Origin: Gemmatimonadaceae bacterium
GTDB lineage: Bacteria > Gemmatimonadota > Gemmatimonadetes > Gemmatimonadales > Gemmatimonadaceae
Direction of reading: 5' to 3'
NCBI GenBank assembly: GCA_013820975.1
Contig: JACDHQ010000001.1
Coordinates: 1-27,741 of the forward strand
DNA: 27,741 nucleotides
The position numbers and the translations under genes were made by a program. Each line of letters begins with the position of its first letter. Positions within the stretch are counted from its first letter, which is position 1. Shown here in pieces: positions 10,565 through 25,834 of the stretch. The notes beneath the pieces are model-generated. The model was not told the DNA's origin, did not search any database, and saw only the letters and a list, made by a program, of their open reading frames with translations.

Positions 10565-11587
10565 CTACACCCGCTTGACCGTGTTCCACTCCAGCAGGCA
10601 CGCCCCCCACGAGTAGCCCACCCCAAAGCCGACGAGCATCACTCGATCTCCGGGCCCGAAGTCGACACCCTTCTCGAACATCGCGATTGGAATCGTGCTG
10701 CTCACGGTGTTGCCGATGGATTCCAGAAACATCGGCGCCTTCTCCTTCGGGATCTTCAGCTTGGTGCGCAGGTGGTCGTTCATGAATGCATTCGCCTGGT
10801 GAAACACGAACCAGTCGACGGCATCCCGCGTGATCCCGGCGCGCCGGAGCGTGGCATCGACGACCTGCGGGACCCGCCTGAGCGTGAACAGAAACAGCTC
10901 CTGGCCATCCATGTACAGCTGCTCCGCTGTCCGCACGGAGCCGTTCTCGTCCTCGACCTCCTGCTGGGTCGCGGCACAGCGCGGCCGGCGCGCGCCACCC
11001 GCTGGGACGATGAGGTTCTCGTAGCCTGCCCCGTCGGTGCCGAGTGTGCAGACGCCGATCTTTGCGCCGCTGCCGTCGCCGTTGATGAGCGTTGCGCTTG
11101 CGCCGTCGCCGAACAGCACGCGTACCGACCGGTCACGCGGGTGAATGAGCTTCGAATACGTCTCGGCAGTGATCAGGAGAACGTTCTTCGCCGAACCCGA
11201 AGCAACCAGTGCCTTTGCGAGGTACAGACCGTACACGTAGCCCGAGCAGCCCTGATTGAAGTCCAGCGCGGCGCAGTCGGTCGGCAGGCCGAGGCGATCC
11301 TGCAGCACGCACGCCGTCGTCGGGAGGAAGTAGTCGGGACTCTGCGTGCAGAGCAGCAGGCAATCCACTGATGCGCGATCGACGTTCATTCCCGTGAGCA
11401 GCTTCTCCGCTGCGGCAAAGCCGAGGTCCGATGCGCTCTCATCGGGACCGGCGATGTGCCGTGCGCGAATGCCTACCTTGGACTCGATGCGCGCCATGTC
11501 CCACGACGGATTCTCTGCCTGGAGGTCGTCGTTGGTCACGATGCGCTCGGGCAGATGATAGGCCATTCCCGCGATGTAGGCGTCCAT
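10565..11587 (-). CDS. 3-oxoacyl-ACP synthase III (FabH-like), copy A
   Basis: Intact Cys-His-Asn triad: NQGCSGYVYG, FHQAN, GNTVSSTIP. Also LFGDGASA and GFGVGYSWG. Confidence 0.92.
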   Translation of the reverse strand: MDAYIAGMAYHLPERIVTNDDLQAENPSWDMARIESKVGIRARHIAGPDESASDLGFAAAEKLLTGMNVDRASVDCLLLCTQSPDYFLPTTACVLQDRLGLPTDCAALDFNQGCSGYVYGLYLAKALVASGSAKNVLLITAETYSKLIHPRDRSVRVLFGDGASATLINGDGSGAKIGVCTLGTDGAGYENLIVPAGGARRPRCAATQQEVEDENGSVRTAEQLYMDGQELFLFTLRRVPQVVDATLRRAGITRDAVDWFVFHQANAFMNDHLRTKLKIPKEKAPMFLESIGNTVSSTIPIAMFEKGVDFGPGDRVMLVGFGVGYSWGACLLEWNTVKRV

Positions 11588-12331
11588 CTACCGGCCCCCC
11601 GATGTCGCGCCATGCCGGGCCGCCTGCGCCGCACCATCCGAGTCGTCGGGCTGCACCGGAGGCACGAACATGAGCCGCTGCGCCGGAACGCCAAACACCG
11701 TGGCGCCCGGTGCCACACGCCGGATCACGACACTCCCCGCACCGACCGTTGCGAAGTCACCCACGCGTGCGCCAGGAAGTACGGCGGCGTGCGCGCCGAG
11801 CGTCACGCCACGACCGAGCACGGCCCCGCCCATGATGTCGCTGTGCGCCCCGACGTGGCAGCCGTCGCCCACGACGACGTCGTGCGCCGGACCGCCCAGC
11901 AGGTCGATGAACACGAAGTCTCCGAGAACGGCGTTGGGGCCGACACCGGTGTACTGCCGCAGCACCACTCCCTCGCCAAGCGTCGCGCTGCGATGCACCA
12001 GCGATGTGGGATGGCGCAGATTCACAAAGCTTGCCCCCCGCGACCGAAGGGCGTTGCACCGGCCAAGCCTGGCGCGCGGCGACGGAATGGCGGGAACGAA
12101 CACCTCGTCGCCGTGGGGGCTGTGGTCGATGATGCCTCCGATCACGGGAAGGTCCACACCGCAGCGGGCCAGCGCATCGCGTGCGCCGTCGACGTCATCA
12201 TCCAGGAAACCCGCGATCTCCCAGTCACGCTGGTCGGCGGGAATCTCCTCCGCCGTCCAGAGTGTCTCCCGGCCGAGGCCTCCCGCTCCGATGATGATGA
12301 GGCGCCGCCGCGCTCCGATGGGATGGCTCAT
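11588..12331 (-). CDS. NeuD/PglD/VioB-family sugar acyltransferase (hexapeptide repeat), copy A, catalytic His present
   Basis: N-terminal IIGAGGLGRE...GFLDDD domain, left-handed beta-helix repeats, 'AHDVVVGDGCHVG', C-terminal GAGSVV...GVPA. Confidence 0.88.
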   Translation of the reverse strand: MSHPIGARRRLIIIGAGGLGRETLWTAEEIPADQRDWEIAGFLDDDVDGARDALARCGVDLPVIGGIIDHSPHGDEVFVPAIPSPRARLGRCNALRSRGASFVNLRHPTSLVHRSATLGEGVVLRQYTGVGPNAVLGDFVFIDLLGGPAHDVVVGDGCHVGAHSDIMGGAVLGRGVTLGAHAAVLPGARVGDFATVGAGSVVIRRVAPGATVFGVPAQRLMFVPPVQPDDSDGAAQAARHGATSGGR

Positions 12332-12334
12332 CGG

Positions 12335-12985
12335 TCAGACGGCCAACGGCCGCGCCGGCACGCCAAGCTGCGTGGAGCCCGCGGCGACACGGCGCAACAC
12401 GACACTGCCGACGCCGATTGTCGCGAACGCGGCGACCCGGACATGCGGGTGGACCGTCACGTGGCTGCCGAGAAAGGTGCCGCGCTCGAGCACGGCGCCG
12501 GACATGAGCTCGCACCGCGCGCCGACGAAGGAGCCCTCGCCGACGACGACATCCTCGCGCAATGACGCGGAAGGGTTGAGCACACTGAACTGGCCCACCG
12601 CTGCCTTGGGCGCAACGCAGGCAAGCGGTCCGATCACCACCCCGGTCCCGATGGATGCGGACCGGTGGACGCGCGCGGTCGGATGAACGAGCGTGATGAA
12701 CGCAGCACCACGATCGAGCAGCGAGCTGCCGATCGCCAGGCGCGCGCGATTGCTCCCGATCGCGGGCAGGAACACCTCGTCGGACCCCGGCACGTGATCG
12801 CGAATGGTGCCCAGCACCGGCAGGTCGACGCCCATGGCGGCGAGGCTCGCCCGCGCGCCGTCCCGATCGTCGTCGAGGAAACCTGCGACATCCCACTCCC
12901 GCGCCGCAGCGGCGATGTCGTCTGCCATCCACAGCACCTCGCGCGCGAACCCGCTTGCGCCGAGCAGCAGCAGTCGCCTGCGCAT
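12335..12985 (-). CDS. NeuD/PglD-family acyltransferase-like protein, copy B, catalytic His position replaced
   Basis: Colinear with copy A (LGASGFARE...GFLDDD...GVDLPV, GSVV...GVPA) but reads 'LREDVVVGEGSFVG' where copy A has 'PAHDVVVGDGCHVG'. Confidence 0.85.
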   Translation of the reverse strand: MRRRLLLLGASGFAREVLWMADDIAAAAREWDVAGFLDDDRDGARASLAAMGVDLPVLGTIRDHVPGSDEVFLPAIGSNRARLAIGSSLLDRGAAFITLVHPTARVHRSASIGTGVVIGPLACVAPKAAVGQFSVLNPSASLREDVVVGEGSFVGARCELMSGAVLERGTFLGSHVTVHPHVRVAAFATIGVGSVVLRRVAAGSTQLGVPARPLAV

Positions 12986-12986
12986 G

Positions 12987-13748
12987 CTAGGCGGAGTAGC
13001 CGCCGTCGATCACCAGCATGGTGCCGGTGACGACGCGGGCAGCGTCGGACAGGAGATAGGCTGCCATCACGGCAACCTCCTCGGGTTTCGGAATCCCCAG
13101 AAAGTGCTCTTCCTCGAGCTTGGTGATGACCGCGTCGGGTGTCGTCGCTTTCATCTCGTGGTACATGGGCGTCTCCACGTAGCCCGGTGCGATCGCGTTC
13201 ACCCGCACCCGTCTGGGCCCGAGCTCCTTGGCCGCGGAGCGCACGATGCCGTTGATGGCGCCCTTGGTGCCGGCATACGTCACCAGCCCGGGCGACCCAT
13301 CGAAGCTCGCCACCGACGACAGCAGCACGACGGATGACTGCCCGGCCGCCACCCCCTTGGCACTGAACCCGCGCAGGAGTCCCAGCGCCGCGTACACGTT
13401 GGGGATCATGAGGTTATCCGTGTTCGCGCGATTTGCCACGCGGATCGGCATCGTGACGCTCAGTCCCGCGGAATGCACCAGCCCATCGAGCGGCGCCTCC
13501 GCGCGTTCGCGCACACCCGTGATCCATGCCGGAATGCCGTCCATCGCCGTGAGGTCGAATGGCTCGACGCGGTGCATCTCCGCATTGGGCAATGCGGCCT
13601 GCGTCTCGCGCAGCGCACCCTCGCGGCGTCCGCCGAGCACGACACGTGCGCCGAGCTGGCCGCAGAGAATGGCGATCGCGCGGCCGATGCCGGATGAGGC
13701 GCCGGTGACGAGGATGGTCTTTCCGGTGAGGTCGAGCGGATTGTGCAC
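12987..13748 (-). CDS. FabG-like classical SDR (putative 3-oxoacyl-ACP reductase), copy A
   Basis: TGASSGIG, LVHSAG, SS, YAGTK (YxxxK), RVNAIAPG, IDGG. GTG start. Confidence 0.88.
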   Translation of the reverse strand: MHNPLDLTGKTILVTGASSGIGRAIAILCGQLGARVVLGGRREGALRETQAALPNAEMHRVEPFDLTAMDGIPAWITGVRERAEAPLDGLVHSAGLSVTMPIRVANRANTDNLMIPNVYAALGLLRGFSAKGVAAGQSSVVLLSSVASFDGSPGLVTYAGTKGAINGIVRSAAKELGPRRVRVNAIAPGYVETPMYHEMKATTPDAVITKLEEEHFLGIPKPEEVAVMAAYLLSDAARVVTGTMLVIDGGYSA

Positions 13749-13757
13749 GGGTGAAAC

Positions 13758-14894
13758 TCAGGCGTGAGTCAACGGATGTGATGCGGCGGAAGTGGACATC
13801 TGCTCCATGTACGCAGCGTGAAAGCGGTGCACCCGTTCTTCCTCTTCGCTGAGGATGCCCGGCTGCGTGGCGTCGCGCAGCCCGAGCTGGACTGCCTCGC
13901 ATACGACCCGATCTTCATGCGTCACCTTCTCGGTAAAAACCGCCGTCGACTCGGTCAGCGCGCTGTGCACCATCTCCTGCACGCCGGCGTCGGCCTTCAT
14001 TCGTGACAGAAAGACGATGCTCGTGAGCTGGGTCTCGACGGGGCTCACGGGGCGCAGCACCTGAAACCCGAAGGTCGCGCCGCAGAGGGTGGAGACGGTG
14101 ACGTTGGGGAAGATGAGCTGGTGGACGTAGCCGGGCACCGGATGCGGCATGCGGCTCGCCTTCACCAGGCGACCCAGCCGCGACGCCGTCGACGCCTCCA
14201 CGGGCGCATGCCAGGAGGAATGCAGGCCGTCGAAGCGGAAATCCATGCCGGACATCTCGAGCGGCTTGAACGTCTCCTCATGCACGAAGCCGACGTGATA
14301 CGCCTCGAGCCCGTTCTCCACTGCGACCTTCCAGTTGCAGCGCAGGAGGACATCGAGCCGCGAAACCGGCGTGCCGAGTGCGAGGCTCATCTGCTCGAGC
14401 GGCGCGAAGCTCGCACCGAGAAACTCACGAAGCGACTCCCCGGGTACGGACGAATCTCCCTCGCCTTCGGCGCCTTCGCGAACGAACACCAGGCCACCGC
14501 ACACATCCAGGTCGTAGCGTCGCAACGCAAGTCTTGCGACCTCCGCGCGGTCCTTCAGTGCATCGAAGCGCGGGCGACTCGGAATGCTGTACGGAATGCC
14601 CTCGGCGTTGTAGATCCACCCGTGATACCCGCACCGCAGCTTGCCATTGCCCTTTGCCTCGCACCGGAGCCGTGAAAATCGGTGCGAGCAGACATTGGCG
14701 AATCCGCGCAGCTCGCCGTCGAAGTTCTGAACCAGCACGGCGCGGCCGGCGACTTCGGTGGTGATGAAGTCGTTGGGAGCCGCGAGATCGGTGGCGAAGC
14801 CGGCGAACTGCCACAGGCGGCCGAAGAGGGACTGGCGTTCCATCCGGAACGCTTCGTCCTCGAAGTACGCGCTGCGGGGAATGAGGGGACGCAC
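13758..14894 (-). CDS. Rieske non-heme iron oxygenase alpha subunit (choline monooxygenase/ring-hydroxylating family)
   Basis: Rieske ligands CSH...CGYH (C-x-H...C-x2-H). Mononuclear Fe motif NWKVAVENGLEAYHVGFVH and EDRVVCEAVQLG. Confidence 0.92.
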   Translation of the reverse strand: MRPLIPRSAYFEDEAFRMERQSLFGRLWQFAGFATDLAAPNDFITTEVAGRAVLVQNFDGELRGFANVCSHRFSRLRCEAKGNGKLRCGYHGWIYNAEGIPYSIPSRPRFDALKDRAEVARLALRRYDLDVCGGLVFVREGAEGEGDSSVPGESLREFLGASFAPLEQMSLALGTPVSRLDVLLRCNWKVAVENGLEAYHVGFVHEETFKPLEMSGMDFRFDGLHSSWHAPVEASTASRLGRLVKASRMPHPVPGYVHQLIFPNVTVSTLCGATFGFQVLRPVSPVETQLTSIVFLSRMKADAGVQEMVHSALTESTAVFTEKVTHEDRVVCEAVQLGLRDATQPGILSEEEERVHRFHAAYMEQMSTSAASHPLTHA

Positions 14895-14903
14895 TGGCGG
14901 CGG

Positions 14904-15143
14904 TCAGCTCGCGAGCGAGGTCTTGGCCGACAGGTAATCCACCACGTCCTGCACCGTCAGGAACCCCCGAATTGCCGAGGACTCGATCTGCACGCCGAGC
15001 TGCTCATCGACCATCGACATGATCGTGAGCCACCCGATGGAGTTCCACTCCTCGACGTCCGCGATGCGCGTGTCGGGCGTCAGCACGCCGGCATCCACTT
15101 CCAGTCCTTCCGCGAACAGTTCCACGAGCTTGTCGTTCGTCAT
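14904..15143 (-). CDS. Acyl carrier protein
   Basis: 79 aa, acidic, start ATG 15143 with GAGGAAAGG upstream. Phosphopantetheine site WNSIG (DSL-type motif with Asn), then LGVQI...TVQDVVDYL. Confidence 0.88.
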   Translation of the reverse strand: MTNDKLVELFAEGLEVDAGVLTPDTRIADVEEWNSIGWLTIMSMVDEQLGVQIESSAIRGFLTVQDVVDYLSAKTSLAS

Positions 15144-15213
15144 CGTCCCTTTCCTCGATCGGATGAGCCGTTCACTGCAGCCAGCGGTTGTGCGGGCTGC
15201 GGCACGACTCCGT

Positions 15214-15969
15214 TCAACAGGTCCAGCCGCCATCGATCACCAGCGTCGTGCCGGAGATCGTACGCGTCGCATCTGACAAGAGGTATGCCGCGGAAGTTGC
15301 GACATCCTCCGGCGAAATGGCGCCGAGGAACTGGCGCTCCGCCACCTTCGCAAAGCCATCGCCCTGAATGTCCTGCACGACGTCCATGATCGGGCCCTGG
15401 ACCCACGCCGGGGCCACGCAGTTGATGCGCATGCGCCGCGGCGCCAGCTCCTTTGCCGCCGAACGGACCATGGCATGGAGCGCGCCCTTGGATGCACTGT
15501 ACACGGAGTGCCCGAGCGCGCCCGCAAGTCCGCTCACCGACGAGACCAGCACCAGCGATGCCGCGTCTGCCCCCACTCCTTTCGCTGCCATTCCGCGAAC
15601 AAGGGCCAGCGAGGCATACACGTTCAGCACCATGAGATCCTCCATCCGGCTCCGGTTGAGGATCCGGATGGGTATGGCTGTACTGAGCCCCGCCGCGTGC
15701 ACCACGCCGTCGAACGGGACGCCCCGCGCTGCCGCAACTCCCTTGAGCCACGCGGGAATGCCGTCAACCTCCGTGAGATCGTAGCACGCCGCGACATGGC
15801 CGGTGCCTTCGAGCATCCCCAGCGTCTCTTCGAGCGCATCCTGACGACGCGCCACGAGCACGAGTTCCGCTCCGAGCTGGCCGAGCACCACGGCGGTCGC
15901 GCGACCGATGCCCGACGAGGCCCCGGTCACGATCACGCGCTTGCCGCTCAGGTCAAGCGGATTGCGCAT
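15214..15969 (-). CDS. FabG-like classical SDR (putative 3-oxoacyl-ACP reductase), copy B
   Basis: TGASSGIG, VVHAAG, SS, YSASK, RINCVAP, IDGG. Shares the N-terminal NPLDL(S/T)GK with copy A. Confidence 0.88.
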   Translation of the reverse strand: MRNPLDLSGKRVIVTGASSGIGRATAVVLGQLGAELVLVARRQDALEETLGMLEGTGHVAACYDLTEVDGIPAWLKGVAAARGVPFDGVVHAAGLSTAIPIRILNRSRMEDLMVLNVYASLALVRGMAAKGVGADAASLVLVSSVSGLAGALGHSVYSASKGALHAMVRSAAKELAPRRMRINCVAPAWVQGPIMDVVQDIQGDGFAKVAERQFLGAISPEDVATSAAYLLSDATRTISGTTLVIDGGWTC

Positions 15970-17071
15970 GCTCGATCTGCATCTGCTCCACCGGACTTCG
16001 CCCCGCTACCACCGGAACGCGAATCACCTGAGCAACCTCGAGCCGCATCTCCACGGCGGCCGCGGCCCACGACAACCCGATGCCGAATCCCGCAAGGACC
16101 ATCTTCTCGGGCGTGCCGCTGGTGAGCACCGGCGCGAGGTCGTCGCCGAGCAGCAGCGGAATGGAAGACATGGAGGTATTGCCGTAGCGCTGGATGTTCA
16201 CCGGCACCTGCTCCGGCAGCACCTTCAGCTTCTTCGCCATCATGTTGAGGATGAAGCCGTTCGCCTGGTGAAACGCGAACGCCTTCACCTCCTCCTTCTG
16301 CCAGCCGTGCAGCGCGAGCACGTCCCTGATGAGCGTCGGCACACGCTTGAGCGTGAAGTTGAACACGGCCAGGCCATCCATGTACAGCTCGAACGGCGCA
16401 CGGCGATTGCCGTCTTCTGCGTCAACGCGCTGCAGCAACTCGGCTGTTGGCCGCTGGCGCCATCCGCCGGCCGGCGCGATGAGGTGACACGCGCCGGTGC
16501 CATCGCTGCCGAGGACGAATGAGATGGGCGGTGCGGTCTCGTCGAACTCCAGCGCGGTCGCCGTGCCAGCATCGCCGAACAGCATCGCGACGGAGCGATC
16601 CTCCGAGGAGATACCGATGCTCGAGGTATCGCCGGCAAGCAGCAGGAAGCGCTTGAGCCCACCCGACTGGATGAACTGGGATCCCATGTACAGGCCATAG
16701 ACATAGCCCGAGCAGCCCTGGTTCACGTCGAACGCAAGGGCATCGCTCGATAGCCCCAGACGCCCGTGCGCGATGTTCGCTGTCGCGGGGCAAAGATGGT
16801 CTGGGGTCTGGGTCACCATGATGACACCGTCGATGGACTCGCGCTCCCAGCCGAGGTCCGCGAGCAGCCGTTCGGCGGCCTGCACCGCGAGGTCGCCCGC
16901 GGTCTGCCCGGGCGCGACGCGGTGCACCGTCTCCAGTCCGACCGTTTTCGCGATCTTCTGGACGTCGGACTCACCGAAGTGCTTGCCGATCTCGGCGACC
17001 TGCAACGGTTCGCCGGGTACGGCGCACACGACTCCGCGGATCGCGACGTTCCTGTTCTGTGTTCTTGCCAT
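15953..17071 (-). CDS. 3-oxoacyl-ACP synthase III (FabH-like), copy B
   Basis: Intact triad: NQGCSGYVYG, FHQAN, GNTSMSSIP. Also LFGDAGTA and GFGIGLSWA. AGGAG precedes the ATG. Confidence 0.92.
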   Translation of the reverse strand: MARTQNRNVAIRGVVCAVPGEPLQVAEIGKHFGESDVQKIAKTVGLETVHRVAPGQTAGDLAVQAAERLLADLGWERESIDGVIMVTQTPDHLCPATANIAHGRLGLSSDALAFDVNQGCSGYVYGLYMGSQFIQSGGLKRFLLLAGDTSSIGISSEDRSVAMLFGDAGTATALEFDETAPPISFVLGSDGTGACHLIAPAGGWRQRPTAELLQRVDAEDGNRRAPFELYMDGLAVFNFTLKRVPTLIRDVLALHGWQKEEVKAFAFHQANGFILNMMAKKLKVLPEQVPVNIQRYGNTSMSSIPLLLGDDLAPVLTSGTPEKMVLAGFGIGLSWAAAAVEMRLEVAQVIRVPVVAGRSPVEQMQIEHAQSA

Positions 17072-17080
17072 GCCCGACTC

Positions 17081-17458
17081 CTAGGTGAGTACGACCACTG
17101 CGCCGGCGATTCCGCCGTCGTGGCTGATGCTCGTCTCGAACGTGGTGAAGCCTGCCTCGCTTGCGCGGCGCAGCGCTTCACCGGACAACTCCAGCACTGG
17201 TGCTCCCGAATCGGCGGTGGTCGTCTCGATGTCGCCGAGTGGGATGCCCGCGCTCAGGCCCGTGCCGAGTGCCTTGAGCACCGCCTCCTTTGTGGCGAAC
17301 CGGCCGGCGAGGTACGCGTAGCGGCGGAACTCGTTCGCATCCTGAACCGCAGCAAGCTCGCGCTCCGAAAAGGTCCGCGCGGCCAGCGGGGGATGCGCCT
17401 GCAGGAGGCGGCGCAACCGGGCAATTTCGACGAGGTCCAGTCCGACCCTGAGTGGCAT
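17081..17458 (-). CDS. acpS: Holo-ACP synthase (AcpS-type phosphopantetheinyl transferase)
   Basis: GLDLVEIAR, FSERE, LAGRFATKEAVLKALGTG, SISHD. Confidence 0.93.
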   Translation of the reverse strand: MPLRVGLDLVEIARLRRLLQAHPPLAARTFSERELAAVQDANEFRRYAYLAGRFATKEAVLKALGTGLSAGIPLGDIETTTADSGAPVLELSGEALRRASEAGFTTFETSISHDGGIAGAVVVLT

Positions 17459-17461
17459 CGG

Positions 17462-18079
17462 TCACTCCAGGATCGAGACGATCCTGAGGGAAGGCTCGGC
17501 CAGCTTCGCGAGCCGGGCCCGAATGGCCTCATCCTGAGTGATGCTGGTGATGACCACGGCATCGGGGGCGAGGCCGCGAAGCTCCGAGCGGTGCCGGATG
17601 GGTGCACCGCGGCACAGGCGTCCCCGCTTGACCGGGTCGTCGTCGATGACGCAGACGACGGTGACGACCTCGGTGCCTGTGAGCGCATCCATCACCACTT
17701 CCCCCGTTTCGCCGGCGCCATACAGCGCCACCCTGAAGACGCCCTGCTTGCGGAGCTCGCCGAAGAACTGCCGGAAGCGCGAGCGGGTCGCCTGGGTCAG
17801 CCGGACGAGCTCGGCCCGGTAGCTGACCTGGTGGTACGCGAGGCAACGCCTGCCCTGGGGCGTGAGGCGATAGGCCATGCCCTGGGAGAGCTGTTCGGTG
17901 GTGATGTACTCGCGTTCCTTGAACATGCGGATGTAGGCATTGACGCGAGCCGGCGTGAGCCCGACGAGGCTGGCGAGCGAACTCTGCGAGGTTTGCGGCT
18001 GACCTTCGAGCAGTTCCATCAGCTGGAGCTCGCGCATGCGGGGCGAGGGCTCCAGGTAGTCGGCGGTCGTGGTGGTCAT
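17462..18079 (-). CDS. Winged helix-turn-helix (MarR/EPS-associated type) regulator with C-terminal Rossmann-like (CoA/NAD-binding) domain
   Basis: N-terminal SQSSLASLVGLTPARVNAYIR...YRLTPQG (wHTH). C-terminal VALYGAGETG...VIDDDPVKRG...PDAVVITS. Confidence 0.82.
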   Translation of the reverse strand: MTTTTADYLEPSPRMRELQLMELLEGQPQTSQSSLASLVGLTPARVNAYIRMFKEREYITTEQLSQGMAYRLTPQGRRCLAYHQVSYRAELVRLTQATRSRFRQFFGELRKQGVFRVALYGAGETGEVVMDALTGTEVVTVVCVIDDDPVKRGRLCRGAPIRHRSELRGLAPDAVVITSITQDEAIRARLAKLAEPSLRIVSILE

Positions 18080-18087
18080 GGTGCCGG

Positions 18088-18115
18088 AATATAGCGAGGG
18101 AACTCATTCAGTGAA
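18088..18115 (-). promoter_or_regulatory. sigma70-type promoter TTCACT-N16-TATATT, 8 nt upstream of the regulator ATG (leaderless-like)
   Basis: Minus-strand -35 at 18115-18110 and -10 at 18093-18088. No Shine-Dalgarno between the -10 and ATG 18079. Confidence 0.55.
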
Positions 18116-18119
18116 TGAG
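18103..18119. promoter_or_regulatory. Perfect palindrome CTCATTCA-G-TGAATGAG, candidate operator overlapping the -35
   Basis: 8-bp arms at 18103-18110 and 18112-18119 with a 1-nt spacer, too tight for an RNA hairpin. It lies 24 bp upstream of the wHTH gene. Confidence 0.7.
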
Positions 18120-18196
18120 GGAGGGATCGTCCGCCCGGACGCGGCCACGTTCCCTTCGCAATTTCTGTTCTGCGTCTCGCGTCCGCAGGCCTCGCC

Positions 18197-19282
18197 TCAG
18201 CGGTCGATGCGGCCCGCCGCCGCGGCGTCGCGCCAGCGCGTTAGCGGGTAGAGCACGAGGATGAAGGGGATCTTCACGAACGTGCGCCAATGGGCGAAAA
18301 GCAGCCGTGGCAGGTTCTCCATCAGATGCGCGTGCTCCATGCGCGCGATATCCGGCTGCAGCCGAATGCGGCCTATTGCATGGCGGAAGAGAATTCCGAC
18401 CATGATGAGGTCGGTGATGGGTTCAGGAAGCTTCCTGGCGAACTCTGCCCTGAGGACCTGATCGTCGAGACCGAGCAAAGCGGCTTCCTTGATGGTGCCG
18501 TACGCCCGCGGTGAGAAGCGCAGATCGTGACTATCGCGGTCGCTCCATCCGATCTCCGCGCTGCGAAGCAGGAGCGTCCGCTGATGGTGAGTAAAGAGGA
18601 GCACGGAAAGGGTGATGAACCAGAACTCCGTTTCCATGCGGCCGCGGTCGCTGACGCCCTTTTCGTGAGGCGTCAGGTCACGCCGCCTGTACACGTACTG
18701 GCTGATCTTACCGAGGGCGAGCAGATGCCTGACGCCTGGCTCAAGATCGGTCACCATTACGGACGCCTGCCCATCGAGGCGCACGCGATCGCCTTCGAAC
18801 TTGTAATTGTTGAATGAGGAGACGCAGAGCTCCGGCCGTATCGTCGAGAGATCGTGAAGCAGCGGGTCGAACTCCGTGTCGTATAACCCGTCGTCGTCGC
18901 CCCAGAGGCAGACATACGACCCGCGAGCCTGCTCGTACAACAGCTGGAAGTTGCGCATCATGCCGACGTTCTCCGCCTGTCGGAGCACCCGGACGTGACA
19001 GAGCGGCGCGAGCCGTTCGCCGAACGTCCGACAGACCTCGTCCGTCTTGTCGGGTGAGGCATTGTCGGAGATCACGATCTCGACGGCATCGCGGAACGCG
19101 GACTGCTCGAGCACGCGCACCATCTGCTCGAGGAGGCGAGCCAGCTTGGGTGCGCGCTTGTAGGTCGGGATACAAAACGAGAGCAGGAGTTCGCCCGGTG
19201 GGACCGTGCCGAACGTCATCTCCGTGAAGGGCTGTGGATCAGTATGTGGATCAGTATGTGGATCAGTATGTGGGTCGGTCAT
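18197..19282 (-). CDS. GT2 glycosyltransferase, similar to 3,6-dideoxyhexosyl (abequosyl/RfbV-type) transferases
   Basis: LSFCIPTYKR, VISDNASPD, NVGMMRNF, ARGSYVCLWGDDD (DXD). ATGA coupling to the upstream reductase. Confidence 0.82.
   Translation of the reverse strand: MTDPHTDPHTDPHTDPQPFTEMTFGTVPPGELLLSFCIPTYKRAPKLARLLEQMVRVLEQSAFRDAVEIVISDNASPDKTDEVCRTFGERLAPLCHVRVLRQAENVGMMRNFQLLYEQARGSYVCLWGDDDGLYDTEFDPLLHDLSTIRPELCVSSFNNYKFEGDRVRLDGQASVMVTDLEPGVRHLLALGKISQYVYRRRDLTPHEKGVSDRGRMETEFWFITLSVLLFTHHQRTLLLRSAEIGWSDRDSHDLRFSPRAYGTIKEAALLGLDDQVLRAEFARKLPEPITDLIMVGILFRHAIGRIRLQPDIARMEHAHLMENLPRLLFAHWRTFVKIPFILVLYPLTRWRDAAAAGRIDR
19233..19280. repeat. 12-bp tandem repeat TGTGGATCAGTA x3 plus one degenerate copy, in-frame (TDPH)n at GT2 N-terminus
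   Basis: Perfect copies at 19233-19244, 19245-19256 and 19257-19268; degenerate TGTGGGTCGGTC at 19269-19280. Confidence 0.95.
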
Positions 19283-23976: not shown

Positions 23977-24015
23977 CGTCGTCTCATGTTTCAGTGGTGC
24001 CCCACACGAACCGTC

Positions 24016-24021
24016 AGTGTA
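24016..24021 (-). promoter_or_regulatory. Candidate -10 element TACACT for the rfbF operon
   Basis: Same hexamer as the -10 at 7163, about 40 nt upstream of the rfbF TTG. No recognisable -35. Confidence 0.3.
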
Positions 24022-24029
24022 ACGCGTCC

Positions 24030-24653
24030 ATGGCCGGATATCGCGGAAAGCGCCTGTTCGACATCATTGCCGTGCTGCTCGCCGCGCCGCTCTGGGTTCC
24101 CGCCCTGGGCGTCGTTGCGGTCGTCGTGCGCTGGAAGATCGGCGCGCCTGTGCTGTTTCGTCAGGTGCGCCCCGGCCTCGACGGCCGGCCATTCGAGATG
24201 ATGAAGTTCCGGACGATGACCGATGGGCGTGATGTCTCGGGCGCCCTGCTGCCCGATGCCGAGCGGCTCACGCCAGCCGGCCGCCGGCTGCGGTCCACGT
24301 CGCTCGACGAGCTTCCCGAGCTGCTCAACGTCCTCCGAGGCGGGATGAGCCTCGTCGGTCCGCGTCCGCTGCTCGTGAGCTACCTGCCGCGCTACGCCGT
24401 GCATCACCGTCGGCGTCACGAGGTGCGTCCGGGGCTCACCGGGCTTGCGCAGGTATCCGGCCGCAACTCGCTCACGTGGCCGGACCGGCTCGATCTTGAC
24501 GTCGAGTACGTCGAGCGCTGCTCGCTCGCGCTCGATCTGCGGATTCTCGGGCGCACGGTGAGCGCGGTGCTCGGGCGGCGCGGAATCAGCGCGGAGGGCG
24601 AGGCGACCATGGCAGAGTTTACGGGTTACGCAGCGGACGAGCCGCGGCGGTGA
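24030..24653 (+). CDS. Small monotopic phosphoglycosyl transferase (PglC-like initiating sugar transferase)
   Basis: Start ATG 24030. KRLFD, RPGLDG.PF..MKFRTM, SLDELPELLNVL.G.MSLVGPRP (Asp-Glu dyad), RPGLTGLAQVSGRN. Confidence 0.93.
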   Translation: MAGYRGKRLFDIIAVLLAAPLWVPALGVVAVVVRWKIGAPVLFRQVRPGLDGRPFEMMKFRTMTDGRDVSGALLPDAERLTPAGRRLRSTSLDELPELLNVLRGGMSLVGPRPLLVSYLPRYAVHHRRRHEVRPGLTGLAQVSGRNSLTWPDRLDLDVEYVERCSLALDLRILGRTVSAVLGRRGISAEGEATMAEFTGYAADEPRR

Positions 24654-25834
24654 TGGGCCGGCGCCATGGCTGAGCGCGCCCCATCCTGGCGCGGAGACTG
24701 TCCCGCGGCCAGGCACCGCTGCAGGCTCTCGATGACCCGCGCCTGGTCCGATGCCGGGAGCGACGACGAGGATGGCAGGCACACGCCGGAGGCAAACAGC
24801 TCCTCGGCGACGGTGCCGCCCACGCGCGGCGCGTCGGCGAAGAGTGGCTGCGTGTGCATGGGACGCCACACCGGCCTTGCCTCGATCTCCGAACGACCGA
24901 GCACTTCGACCACCTCGTTGGGGCGCACCCCGGTCTGGCGCGGGTCGAGGATGGCGACGGTCAGCCACCTGGTGTGAAGCCCCCACGACGATTCGGGCTG
25001 CAGGCTCGCGCCACACATCATGCCAAACGCGGCAGCATACCGCTCTGCCACGGCGCGCCGCTGTGCCACTCGCTCGTCGAGCACCTGCAGCTGCCCGCGC
25101 CCGATGCCGGCCAGCACGTTGCTCATGCGGTAGTTGTATCCCAGTTCATGGTGCACGTACTCCGCCGCCGGCTCCCGCGCCTGCGTCGACCACTTGCGCA
25201 TGACGGCGATGGCCTCGGCGCTGCGGGCCACGACCATCCCGCCTGCCGTGGTCGTGATGATCTTGTTTCCGTTGAAGCTCAGCAGCGAATAGTCCGCGGT
25301 CGTGGCCGTCTGCCGGCCGCGGTAGGTCCCGCCGAGCGACTCCGCTGCGTCCTCGACGAGCGGGACGCCGTACTCGCGGCACGCCTCGGCGATGGCGTCG
25401 ATGTCGCAATGCTGCCCGTACAGGTGCACCGCGACGAGCGCCTTGGGCAGCGTCCCCGCCGCGGCGGCCGTCCGCAGGTACTCCCGCACCAGTGAGGGGT
25501 CGATGTTCCACGACTCGCGCTCGCTGTCGATGAAGACGGGCGTTGCGCCCAGGTACATGATCGGAAATACGGAGCCGGCGAAGGTCAGCGTGGAAACCGC
25601 AACGCGATCACCCGGCCCCACCCCCAGCCAGCGGAGGATCAGGTGCAGCGCCGCGGTTCCACTGGCGACGGCCAGCGTGGAAACCCCCTCGCCCAGCCGG
25701 CCGGCGACCTCCTCCTCGAACCGGTCGAGGTTGGGACCGACGGATGACAGCCAGTTCGAGGCGAAGGCCTCGGCCACGTACTGCTGCTCGTGGCCGCTCA
25801 TGTGCGGCACGGAAAGGTGAACGCGCGAGGACAC
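24626..25834 (-). CDS. DegT/DnrJ/EryC1/StrS PLP aminotransferase, PglE-like (UDP-4-keto-6-deoxy-GlcNAc 4-aminotransferase)
   Basis: HLSVPHMSG, ASNW...GP, SGTAALHL, VEDAAESLG, SFNGNKIITT (Schiff-base Lys), GYNYRMSNVLAGIG, RPVWRPMHTQP, GVCLPSSS. Confidence 0.93.
   Translation of the reverse strand: MSSRVHLSVPHMSGHEQQYVAEAFASNWLSSVGPNLDRFEEEVAGRLGEGVSTLAVASGTAALHLILRWLGVGPGDRVAVSTLTFAGSVFPIMYLGATPVFIDSERESWNIDPSLVREYLRTAAAAGTLPKALVAVHLYGQHCDIDAIAEACREYGVPLVEDAAESLGGTYRGRQTATTADYSLLSFNGNKIITTTAGGMVVARSAEAIAVMRKWSTQAREPAAEYVHHELGYNYRMSNVLAGIGRGQLQVLDERVAQRRAVAERYAAAFGMMCGASLQPESSWGLHTRWLTVAILDPRQTGVRPNEVVEVLGRSEIEARPVWRPMHTQPLFADAPRVGGTVAEELFASGVCLPSSSSLPASDQARVIESLQRCLAAGQSPRQDGARSAMAPAHHRRGSSAA

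Follow-up and report, generated by a model that had tools for sequence, protein, structure and literature searches.

The 27,741-nucleotide stretch analyzed here, referred to below as the window (positions 1 to 27,741 of contig JACDHQ010000001.1, GenBank assembly GCA_013820975.1, from a Gemmatimonadaceae bacterium), carries a gene for a putative transcriptional regulator, REG, at the head of a ten-gene acyl operon. REG (17462-18079, minus strand) encodes a 205-residue protein recognized from its open reading frame (ORF), from matches to Pfam and NCBIfam models, and from an AlphaFold2 (AF2) model, and it has no Shine-Dalgarno sequence. It is preceded by a family 2 glycosyltransferase (GT2) gene (18197-19282, minus strand; Glycos_transf_2, 4e-15), the last gene of a backbone block, whose stop codon ends at 18197. 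The intergenic gap is 117 nt, and the gene coordinates thus agree with the separation of operon and upstream block given in the initial annotation of this DNA, which was made from the sequence letters and their ORFs.

A consensus scan of positions 17000-19000 finds a single promoter-like site, against a mean of 0.2 in shuffled sequences. It is a sigma70-like promoter on the minus strand (18088-18115), with a -35 TTCACT (18115-18110), a 16-nt spacer, and a -10 TATATT (18093-18088). Only 8 nt (ccggcacc), with no GGAG, lie between the -10 and the ATG at 18079, and the predicted transcription start site (TSS) at about 18079-18082 would leave the REG mRNA leaderless or with a leader of at most 3 nt. 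The promoter, its spacing from the ATG, and the missing Shine-Dalgarno sequence had all been proposed in the initial annotation, and both the scan and a reading of the sequence confirm them. No upstream TTGAC-type promoter such as those of the orthologous loci described below was found in the window; 16-18 nt from a TTGCGA at about -60 there is nothing that could serve as a -10, and the only -35 partner of a GACGAT upstream of REG is GGGAAC.

The -35 hexamer falls within a palindrome at 18103-18119, CTCATTCA-G-TGAATGAG, a predicted operator of 17 bp that is assigned to neither strand and whose 8-nt arms, on either side of a single central base, are 100% complementary. Both the exact palindrome and its overlap with the -35 are as first annotated. 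It has no other match in the window even when three mismatches are allowed (7 of 100 shuffled sequences produced a match), and a scan with a position weight matrix (PWM) gives no further site above 12 bits in the window. The metagenome-assembled genome (MAG), that of an uncultured Gemmatimonadota bacterium (3.16 Mb, 78.6% complete, 68.6% G+C), contains a single exact copy of the 15-mer core of the palindrome, which is also the top PWM site of the whole MAG (26.9 bits); the runner-up (C179:5971, 25.2 bits) lies within the coding sequence of a TrkH-like protein (SAFCNAGF). A search of 17900-18350 for Rfam RNA families (E<=1) found none. The palindrome holds an in-frame TGA in its right arm, which rules out an earlier REG start, and a YLEPSP sequence near the N terminus is conserved with synonymous third-base changes among orthologs, so that translation must start upstream of YLEPSP.

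We considered two further sites as additional operators in the MAG, C353:1187 (20.6 bits) and C168:4644, and judged neither convincing. The former (GTCATTCGCTGACTGAA; G000:C353:1187-1203, locus L049) abuts the ATG of a MotA/TolQ/ExbB-like ORF and is the only other intergenic near-match in the MAG; it is probably a chance occurrence.

Conservation of the palindrome beside REG relatives

Relatives of REG with 55-67% identity number 24, all of them metagenomic and one of them labeled Gemmatimonadetes. A profile search with this close family found no relatives in the contigs of species-representative genomes, and the homologs found in samples of 60 relatives and of 400 genomes from the phylum were all of 37% identity or less. 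We compared four orthologous metagenome loci (L015-L018; 57-65% protein identity), of which L016 and L017 are near-identical, leaving three independent loci. They are syntenic (GT2-REG-(AcpS)-KASIII-...), and GT2 precedes REG in each locus that extends that far (L016-L018). The GT2-REG intergenic regions cannot be aligned across the four loci save for one block, and this block is the motif: TTCATTCA-C-TGAATGAA in L015, TTCATTCA-G-TAAATGAA in L016 and L017, and TTCATTCA-G-TGAATGAA in L018. The family consensus is TTCATTCA-S-TGA(A/G)TGAA, or (TTCA)2-N-(TGAA)2. The initial annotation had made conservation upstream of orthologs the test of its palindrome, and this is borne out: the motif is the sole conserved noncoding block in 4/4 loci, and the scan of genome and orthologous loci for TTCATTCA-N-TGAATGAA that it had suggested finds the motif at all four. 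Good promoters (TTGACG-N17-TACTCT, TTGACG-N18-TACAGT, and TTGACA-N17-GAGCAT) precede the block in the orthologs, with 9-12 nt from the -10 to the block, and the block itself is either 11 nt ahead of the start codon or overlaps it, with the start codon within the motif in L016 and probably also in L018. Relative to the predicted TSS, the motif spans -38 to -22 in the window, about +3 to +20 in the orthologs, and -32 to -16 at the second sites of Candidatus Glassbacteria.

Candidatus Glassbacteria is a family in which 12 of 13 genomes carry REG homologs of 35% identity, identified in a search of 400 phylum genomes. In all 12 loci fetched, TTCATTCAGTGAGTGAA (or TTCATTCGGTGAATGAA, in one genus) is found 2 nt before the ATG, and the remaining upstream sequence is dissimilar. 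The neighborhood differs from that of the window, and is a fliD-maf-fliS flagellin-glycosylation island. A second motif copy is present in four of five Glassbacteria genomes, exact in three and with one mismatch in the fourth (L045:3026-3042, minus strand, equivalent to G075:C90:13326-13342; L044; L046; L050). These second copies lie between a sulfatase gene and an operon for a UDP-GlcNAc 2-epimerase, a hexapeptide acetyltransferase, a GT4, an AsnB-like amidotransferase, another GT4, and a GT1, and they directly adjoin a TG(A/T)TATATATT extended -10 (TGnTATATT), about 80-100 nt before the gene. The layout motif-spacer-TATATTCCGG is common to the window, with a 9-nt gap, and to the Glassbacteria second sites, with 5 nt. 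The position of the second sites, upstream of the predicted transcription start, argues for a site that is read as DNA. The epimerase operon is likely a second target of the Glassbacteria regulator.

In the flagellin-glycosylation island at L034:5234-13112 (G075:C67), and similarly in L035-L039, the genes run fliD, Maf (MptE-like), fliS, the REG homolog, a pyrroloquinoline quinone (PQQ)-propeller protein, a fusion of NTP_transf_3 and CDP-OH_P_transf, a GT9, a methyltransferase, and a CMP-sugar synthetase. The predicted operator of these loci is within the 43-nt gap between fliS and the REG homolog.

Motif-like sequences also occur in other phyla. A Desulfobacteraceae homolog that heads a 4,6-dehydratase/NeuB operon has CCATTCA-T-TGAATGG about 200 nt upstream, and in Verrucomicrobiota TTCAGTCAGTGAATG is found just after homologs that follow a Maf gene. 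Three other homologs (28-35% identity) have no motif that we could find at their loci, and these have V-N-R-x-[IL]-R in the recognition helix where the motif-bearing subfamilies have V-N-x-Y-I-[RK]. The context of REG is a glycan or nucleotide-sugar locus in each of the four phyla examined. A relaxed 15-mer scan of 299 other genomes of the class Gemmatimonadetes did not turn up the full motif; most of this set is shared with the phylum and relatives samples, in which no close REG was seen. The relaxed 15-mer does match in 12 of the 299 (including the unpublished G102, which is counted in that tally only), but as all of these matches are in long open frames, none is near a REG homolog, and none has either the A[CG] at the center or the flanking T/A, we treated them as unrelated. 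The motif is thus conserved next to the regulator in its orthologs and co-occurs with it, the pattern looked for in an autoregulated pair. Since it is conserved beside REG relatives in distant bacteria, the palindrome is very probably REG's own binding site, and this phylogenetic footprint strongly supports the proposal of the initial annotation that it is a putative operator for the adjacent regulator, on that regulator's own promoter.

Several details of these more distant loci deserve mention. In the Desulfobacteraceae locus, both the perfect palindrome (L067:2772-2788) and a degenerate copy, TCCAGTCAGTGAACGAA (2929-2945), are upstream of the homolog; the operon that the homolog heads includes an NDP-sugar 4,6-dehydratase and a NeuB with a fused AP_endonuc_2 domain, and genes for a B12-radical SAM protein and a GT2 precede it. 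In Verrucomicrobiota, motif-like (C/G)TCATTCTCTGA(A/G)TAAA sequences (L063:313-329, L064:297-313, and L066:272-288) lie upstream of a 206-residue ORF and the Maf gene that precede the REG homolog, and are followed some 20-35 nt on by TTGGCACAGAATCTGTAT, which resembles a sigma54 -24/-12 promoter. In L063 and L066, TTCAGTCAGTG(A/C)ATG is located just past the stop codon of the REG homolog. A 35%-identical homolog at L026 (G300:C161:36840-37388), which is motif-less and has the helix LTRVNRLIR, is embedded in a 393-residue open frame beside a PglF-like gene, and may be a fused or mis-started form.

Domains and relatives of the REG protein

REG begins with a winged helix-turn-helix (wHTH) domain (residues 13-72; 17864-18043, minus strand) with the recognition helix PARVNAYIR, identified with VIA-align and with the Pfam model HTH_24, a generic wHTH model (residues 17-60, E 1.2e-7, 31.7 bits against a cutoff of 21.9). 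A 38-residue helix follows (residues 74-111; 17747-17860, minus strand) in the AF2 secondary structure, which aligns with the C-terminal helix of PadR-like proteins and Sso10a; in the model it is probably a dimerization helix or a coiled-coil linker. The remainder is a five-strand Rossmann-like domain (residues 116-202; 17474-17734, minus strand) containing YGAGETGE and IDDDPVKRG, identified through PF08484, 3nkl, and the C-terminal domain of Rex, and presumed to be the sensor. The AF2 model has a pLDDT of 87.9 and was built on 23 homologs. Across 60 diverse family members N47 and Y49 are near-invariant and D146 is invariant, and the family-wide signature is YGAGET.E ... VDDD..KQG. A search of 1.84 billion representatives places 139 clusters (50% identity; E<=1e-10) in the family, almost all of them of 200-220 residues. 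It ranges over Gemmatimonadota, Verrucomicrobiota, Desulfobacterota, Thermotogota, and Firmicutes, and its annotations go no further than 'winged helix-turn-helix' or 'MarR family'. In the literature we found no paper on the motif or on such a regulator. The family appears to be uncharacterized; regulators of the kind predicted here, wHTH repressors that sense a ligand and act at a palindromic operator, are known.

The N-terminal part of the protein (residues 9-101) superposes with VIA-align on PadR-like, MarR, and Sso10a structures at Z scores of 11-13. The PadR-like protein 7wjp (subfamily 2) matches 92 residues at Z 12.9 and an rmsd of 2.1 A, sharing the wHTH and dimerization helix at the level of fold only, and many of the MarR and Sso10a superpositions are at Z 10-12.6. 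Members of these families are dimeric, bind palindromes, and are mostly repressors, but they have no C-terminal Rossmann-like domain; nor do the MarR models recognize REG, with Pfam MarR at E 0.039 and 14.3 bits (cutoff, 24.6) and MarR_EPS (TIGR04176) at 22.5 bits (cutoff, 88).

The best sequence and domain-level matches to residues 113-205 are small Rossmann-like domains of nucleotide-sugar enzymes: the N-terminal domain of PglF/WbpM dehydratases (3nkl), that of NeuD/PglD/VioB/PerB, and the C-terminal domain of sugar C-3'-methyltransferases (PF08484; 3ndi, 5t6b). PF08484 matches residues 84-197 with 33.6 bits against a cutoff of 23.5, and since REG has no methyltransferase domain we regard this as a shared domain and not a shared enzyme family; the PF08484 domain aids dTDP-sugar binding, a point that we did not use as evidence. 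The C-terminal domain profile matches 3nkl at E 2e-6 to 2e-8, and residues 110-205 superpose with VIA-align on 2g6t, 3nkl (Z 11.6, 26% identity), and 3ndi (Z 11.5). The matches to PglD_N (17.4 bits against 23.4) and to positions 2-87 of the NeuD-type model TIGR03570 (29.9 bits against 160.8) are weak, and there is no match in REG to Hexapep, the left-handed beta-helix catalytic domain, so that it does not have the full NeuD/PglB/VioB architecture. Where these enzymes have a catalytic partner (left-handed beta-helix, short-chain dehydrogenase/reductase [SDR], or methyltransferase), REG has a DNA-binding domain instead. Within the window, the PglF-like protein shares 38% identity over 45 residues (E 4e-5) of its CoA_binding_3 region with the REG segment from YGAGETG to IDDDPVKRG, and REG can be aligned on GAG...DDD with each of the operon's two NeuD-like proteins, in agreement with the likeness first noticed in the initial annotation; for the two NeuD-like proteins it is confined to the level of hidden Markov models and alignments, as BLASTP gives nothing significant. 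The spacing of REG G121/G123...D146-x4-K151 equals that of Gly8/Gly11 and Asp32/Lys37 in VioB, in which Gly8 and Gly11 contact the ribose and beta-phosphate of the dTDP-sugar and Asp32 and Lys37 bind the ribose (PMC9271549).

As a whole, REG resembles Rex (T-Rex, 1xcb/3ikt; B-Rex, 2vt2; RSP, 3wg9; TTHA1657, 2dt5) in its size of about 205 residues, in the two-domain fold of N-terminal wHTH and C-terminal Rossmann-type domain, and in sharing both GxGxxG and (F/V)D.DP.K.G. Rex proteins are its best full-length Foldseek matches (2dt5, 3ikv, 1xcb, 3wg9, and 2vt2; E 1e-6 to 1e-5 over about 210 columns), with a TM-score of only 0.35 owing to a different domain arrangement, and the REG family profile matches the C-terminal domain of Rex from Thermotoga maritima (5zz5; E 6.9e-6) and Bacillus subtilis (E 5e-3). 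However, the curated Rex model NF003995 aligns with residues 112-171 only (E 0.0025, 17.4 bits against a cutoff of 126), the Rex N-terminal domain and CoA_binding are not among the 14 Pfam families listed for REG at E<=10, and the helix-turn-helix of REG is of the HTH_24/MarR-like type. REG also differs from Rex in its 38-residue interdomain helix, its five-strand sheet, and its shorter domain without the swapped C-terminal helix. Both have palindromic operators rich in TTCA/TGAA on promoters, predicted in the case of REG, but the Rex operator is TTGTGAA-N4-TTCACAA, unlike the (TTCA)2-N-(TGAA)2 predicted for REG, and Rex is found with genes for fermentation and respiration whereas REG is found in glycan loci. 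We suggest, from these comparisons, that REG works like Rex but is not Rex. CggR/SorC regulators, with CggR among the Foldseek and VIA-align matches, follow the same logic of a metabolite-binding fold fused to a DNA-binding domain; their sensor fold and operator differ from those of REG, and the comparison is by analogy only.

Proposed autorepression by REG, its possible signal, and the alternatives

We consider it reasonably probable that REG is a ligand-released autorepressor of the ten-gene operon that runs from REG to the distal KASIII gene. A REG dimer, paired through the long helix, would bind (TTCA)2-N-(TGAA)2 at 18103-18119. As the site covers the -35 and spacer of REG's own promoter, bound REG should block RNA polymerase at those elements in the window; in the orthologs the block would fall on the transcription start. 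The block would repress REG together with nine cotranscribed downstream genes, which are predicted to make an acyl group and attach it to an amino sugar, and a ligand on the Rossmann-like domain would free REG from the DNA and turn the operon on. Such a ligand would probably contain nucleotide, ribose, and diphosphate, the favored guess being the NDP-amino-sugar acceptor or a related nucleotide-sugar. We infer binding, dimerization, ligand, and direction of control, with repression rather than activation read from the position of the site alone.

Several observations weigh against this scheme. The position of the operator relative to the promoter is not conserved, as it overlaps the -35 in the window and is downstream of the promoter in the closest orthologs, and the close orthologous loci include only three that are independent. 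A start codon inside the motif (L016, and probably L018) also fits a role at the RNA level, and perfect copies of the motif can form a 7-bp RNA hairpin (z of about -2.2). In the sensor domain, the Glassbacteria subfamily has GAAETG, not GxGxxG, and the domain is equally similar to that of NAD(H)-binding Rex. The scope of control is affected as well. That REG controls only the acyl decoration, as the initial annotation had it, is favored by the single operator in the MAG and by the ten tightly packed genes, although further operators may be missing from a MAG that is 78.6% complete. Its corollary would be independence from backbone transcription, but no terminator-like site was found between GT2 and REG, and transcription may read through from GT2 into the REG operon.

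The nature of the signal is the part of the scheme with the strongest competitor. Homology favors a ligand with a nucleotide-ribose-diphosphate moiety, either an NDP-sugar, as in the VioB/PglD N-terminal domains, or NAD(H), as in Rex. Because REG is found in nucleotide-sugar loci in every phylum examined, we favor a nucleotide-sugar, to which we give a little less than an even chance, over NAD(P)(H), which we think rather unlikely, and over CoA or acyl-CoA, which we think improbable. The same repressor and operator could instead respond to redox state through NAD(H), as Rex does, or to CoA/acyl-CoA, an explanation that we regard as unlikely overall. It would account for the match of the family profile to the NAD(H)-binding domain of Rex from T. 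maritima and B. subtilis, for the position of Rex at the top of the Foldseek matches, and for the common GxGxxG...D..K pattern, and the operon does use NAD(P)H-dependent SDRs, a Rieske oxygenase, and acyl-ACP or acyl-CoA. However, in addition to the nucleotide-sugar context in all four phyla, the stronger sequence matches are to nucleotide-sugar enzyme domains (3nkl, PF08484, and the NeuD/VioB N-terminal domain), the second glycine of the pattern is alanine in the Glassbacteria subfamily, and the domain is shorter than that of Rex and lacks its swapped C-terminal helix.

The direction of control could also be the reverse of autorepression, with REG binding a true DNA operator and activating over a weak -35, in a class-II or MerR-like manner, to turn the acyl operon on. 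The -35s that the motif overlaps are indeed weak, TTCACT (4/6) in the window and TTCATT (3/6) at the Glassbacteria second sites, and the second-site promoters have an extended -10 for which no -35 is needed. We nonetheless find activation improbable, as the three close orthologs have the site at about +3 to +20, past strong -35/-10 pairs, an arrangement that suits only repression or a roadblock, and the nearest structural analogs of REG, Rex and PadR/MarR, are mostly repressors.

A role for the 17-mer in the mRNA, as a hairpin in the 5' untranslated region or a site for an RNA-binding protein that adjoins or covers the start codon of the Shine-Dalgarno-less REG gene, tuning translation or stability, is slightly more improbable still. 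In L015, L016, and L018 the motif is downstream of TTGAC(G/A)-N17/18 promoters and hence would be transcribed, and the start codon is either in the motif, in the loci named above, or 2 nt past it in Glassbacteria. Moreover, both the outer T..A to C..G change in the window and the A to G change in Glassbacteria (giving a U.G pair) preserve pairing. Nonetheless, the Glassbacteria variant, which is equally conserved, does not fold (z -0.17), conservation is of sequence and goes beyond mere pairing, and the sites in the window and the Glassbacteria second sites are upstream of the -10 and so would be outside the transcript. The potential hairpin is also short and AU-rich and has no Rfam match. It is for these reasons (the nonfolding variant, the sites upstream of the -10, the sequence conservation, and the lack of an Rfam match) that we read the motif as a DNA operator.

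We give even less credence to the possibility that a different transcription factor, whether global or locus-specific, uses the site, with REG binding elsewhere or nowhere. Weak motif-like sequences do occur elsewhere, such as the one before the MotA/TolQ/ExbB-like ORF (G000:C353:1187), but the motif is present in one or two copies per genome, always beside REG or on a glycan operon, and is found only where REG is found, across two classes and differing neighborhoods. The full motif was not found in the relaxed scan of the 299 other Gemmatimonadetes-class genomes, which overlap the samples without a close homolog, and the recognition helix of REG covaries with the presence of the motif. We rejected a chance palindrome, given that the window and the MAG each hold this one site and that it is conserved.

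A broader and more tentative proposal, which we consider unlikely as a whole, is that with REG and its predicted operator a member is described for the first time from a widespread family of Rex-like repressors that sense an NDP- or CMP-sugar intermediate directly through a domain of the glycan-enzyme type, so that a decoration is expressed only when its nucleotide-sugar substrate is present. This would cover an acylated amino sugar here and flagellin or nonulosonic-acid glycosylation elsewhere. To our knowledge, few transcription factors read nucleotide-sugar pools directly, and we know of little about how individual glycan decorations such as acylation or flagellin glycosylation are switched outside of phase variation. 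Should the ligand prove to be NAD(H), REG would represent a diverged branch of Rex that glycan loci have recruited. The analysis yields a compact regulator family and its likely operator of 17 bp, with candidate regulons from several phyla. For Gemmatimonadota, a phylum that includes Candidatus Glassbacteria and in which hardly any gene regulation is known, it supplies a first cis-regulatory motif. REG itself is small and probably soluble, and its candidate ligands are few.

The acyl operon and neighboring genes

The genes downstream of REG are all on the minus strand, and the ten-gene operon from REG to the distal KASIII gene is tightly packed, with gaps of -20 to +9 nt. The first is for the holo-acyl carrier protein (ACP) synthase AcpS (17081-17458; ACPS, 7.8e-18, and TIGR00556), whose ATG is 3 nt past the REG stop codon and which has a GGAG Shine-Dalgarno sequence. 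It is followed by genes identified through Pfam/NCBIfam matches for a KASIII (15953-17071), an SDR (15214-15969), an ACP (14904-15233), a Rieske oxygenase (13758-14894), a second SDR (12987-13748), two acyltransferases of the NeuD/PglB/VioB type (12335-12985 and 11588-12331), and a second KASIII (10565-11587). The Rieske gene, in the middle of the acyl operon, encodes the alpha subunit of a non-heme iron oxygenase and suggests that either the acyl chain or the sugar is hydroxylated; we noticed no partner reductase or ferredoxin in the window. Elsewhere in the window, a 341-residue ORF with no Pfam match (23991-25016, minus strand) overlaps by about 390 nt, in another frame, the ORF of a DegT-type aminotransferase (24626-25834, minus strand), and probably one of the two calls or starts is wrong.

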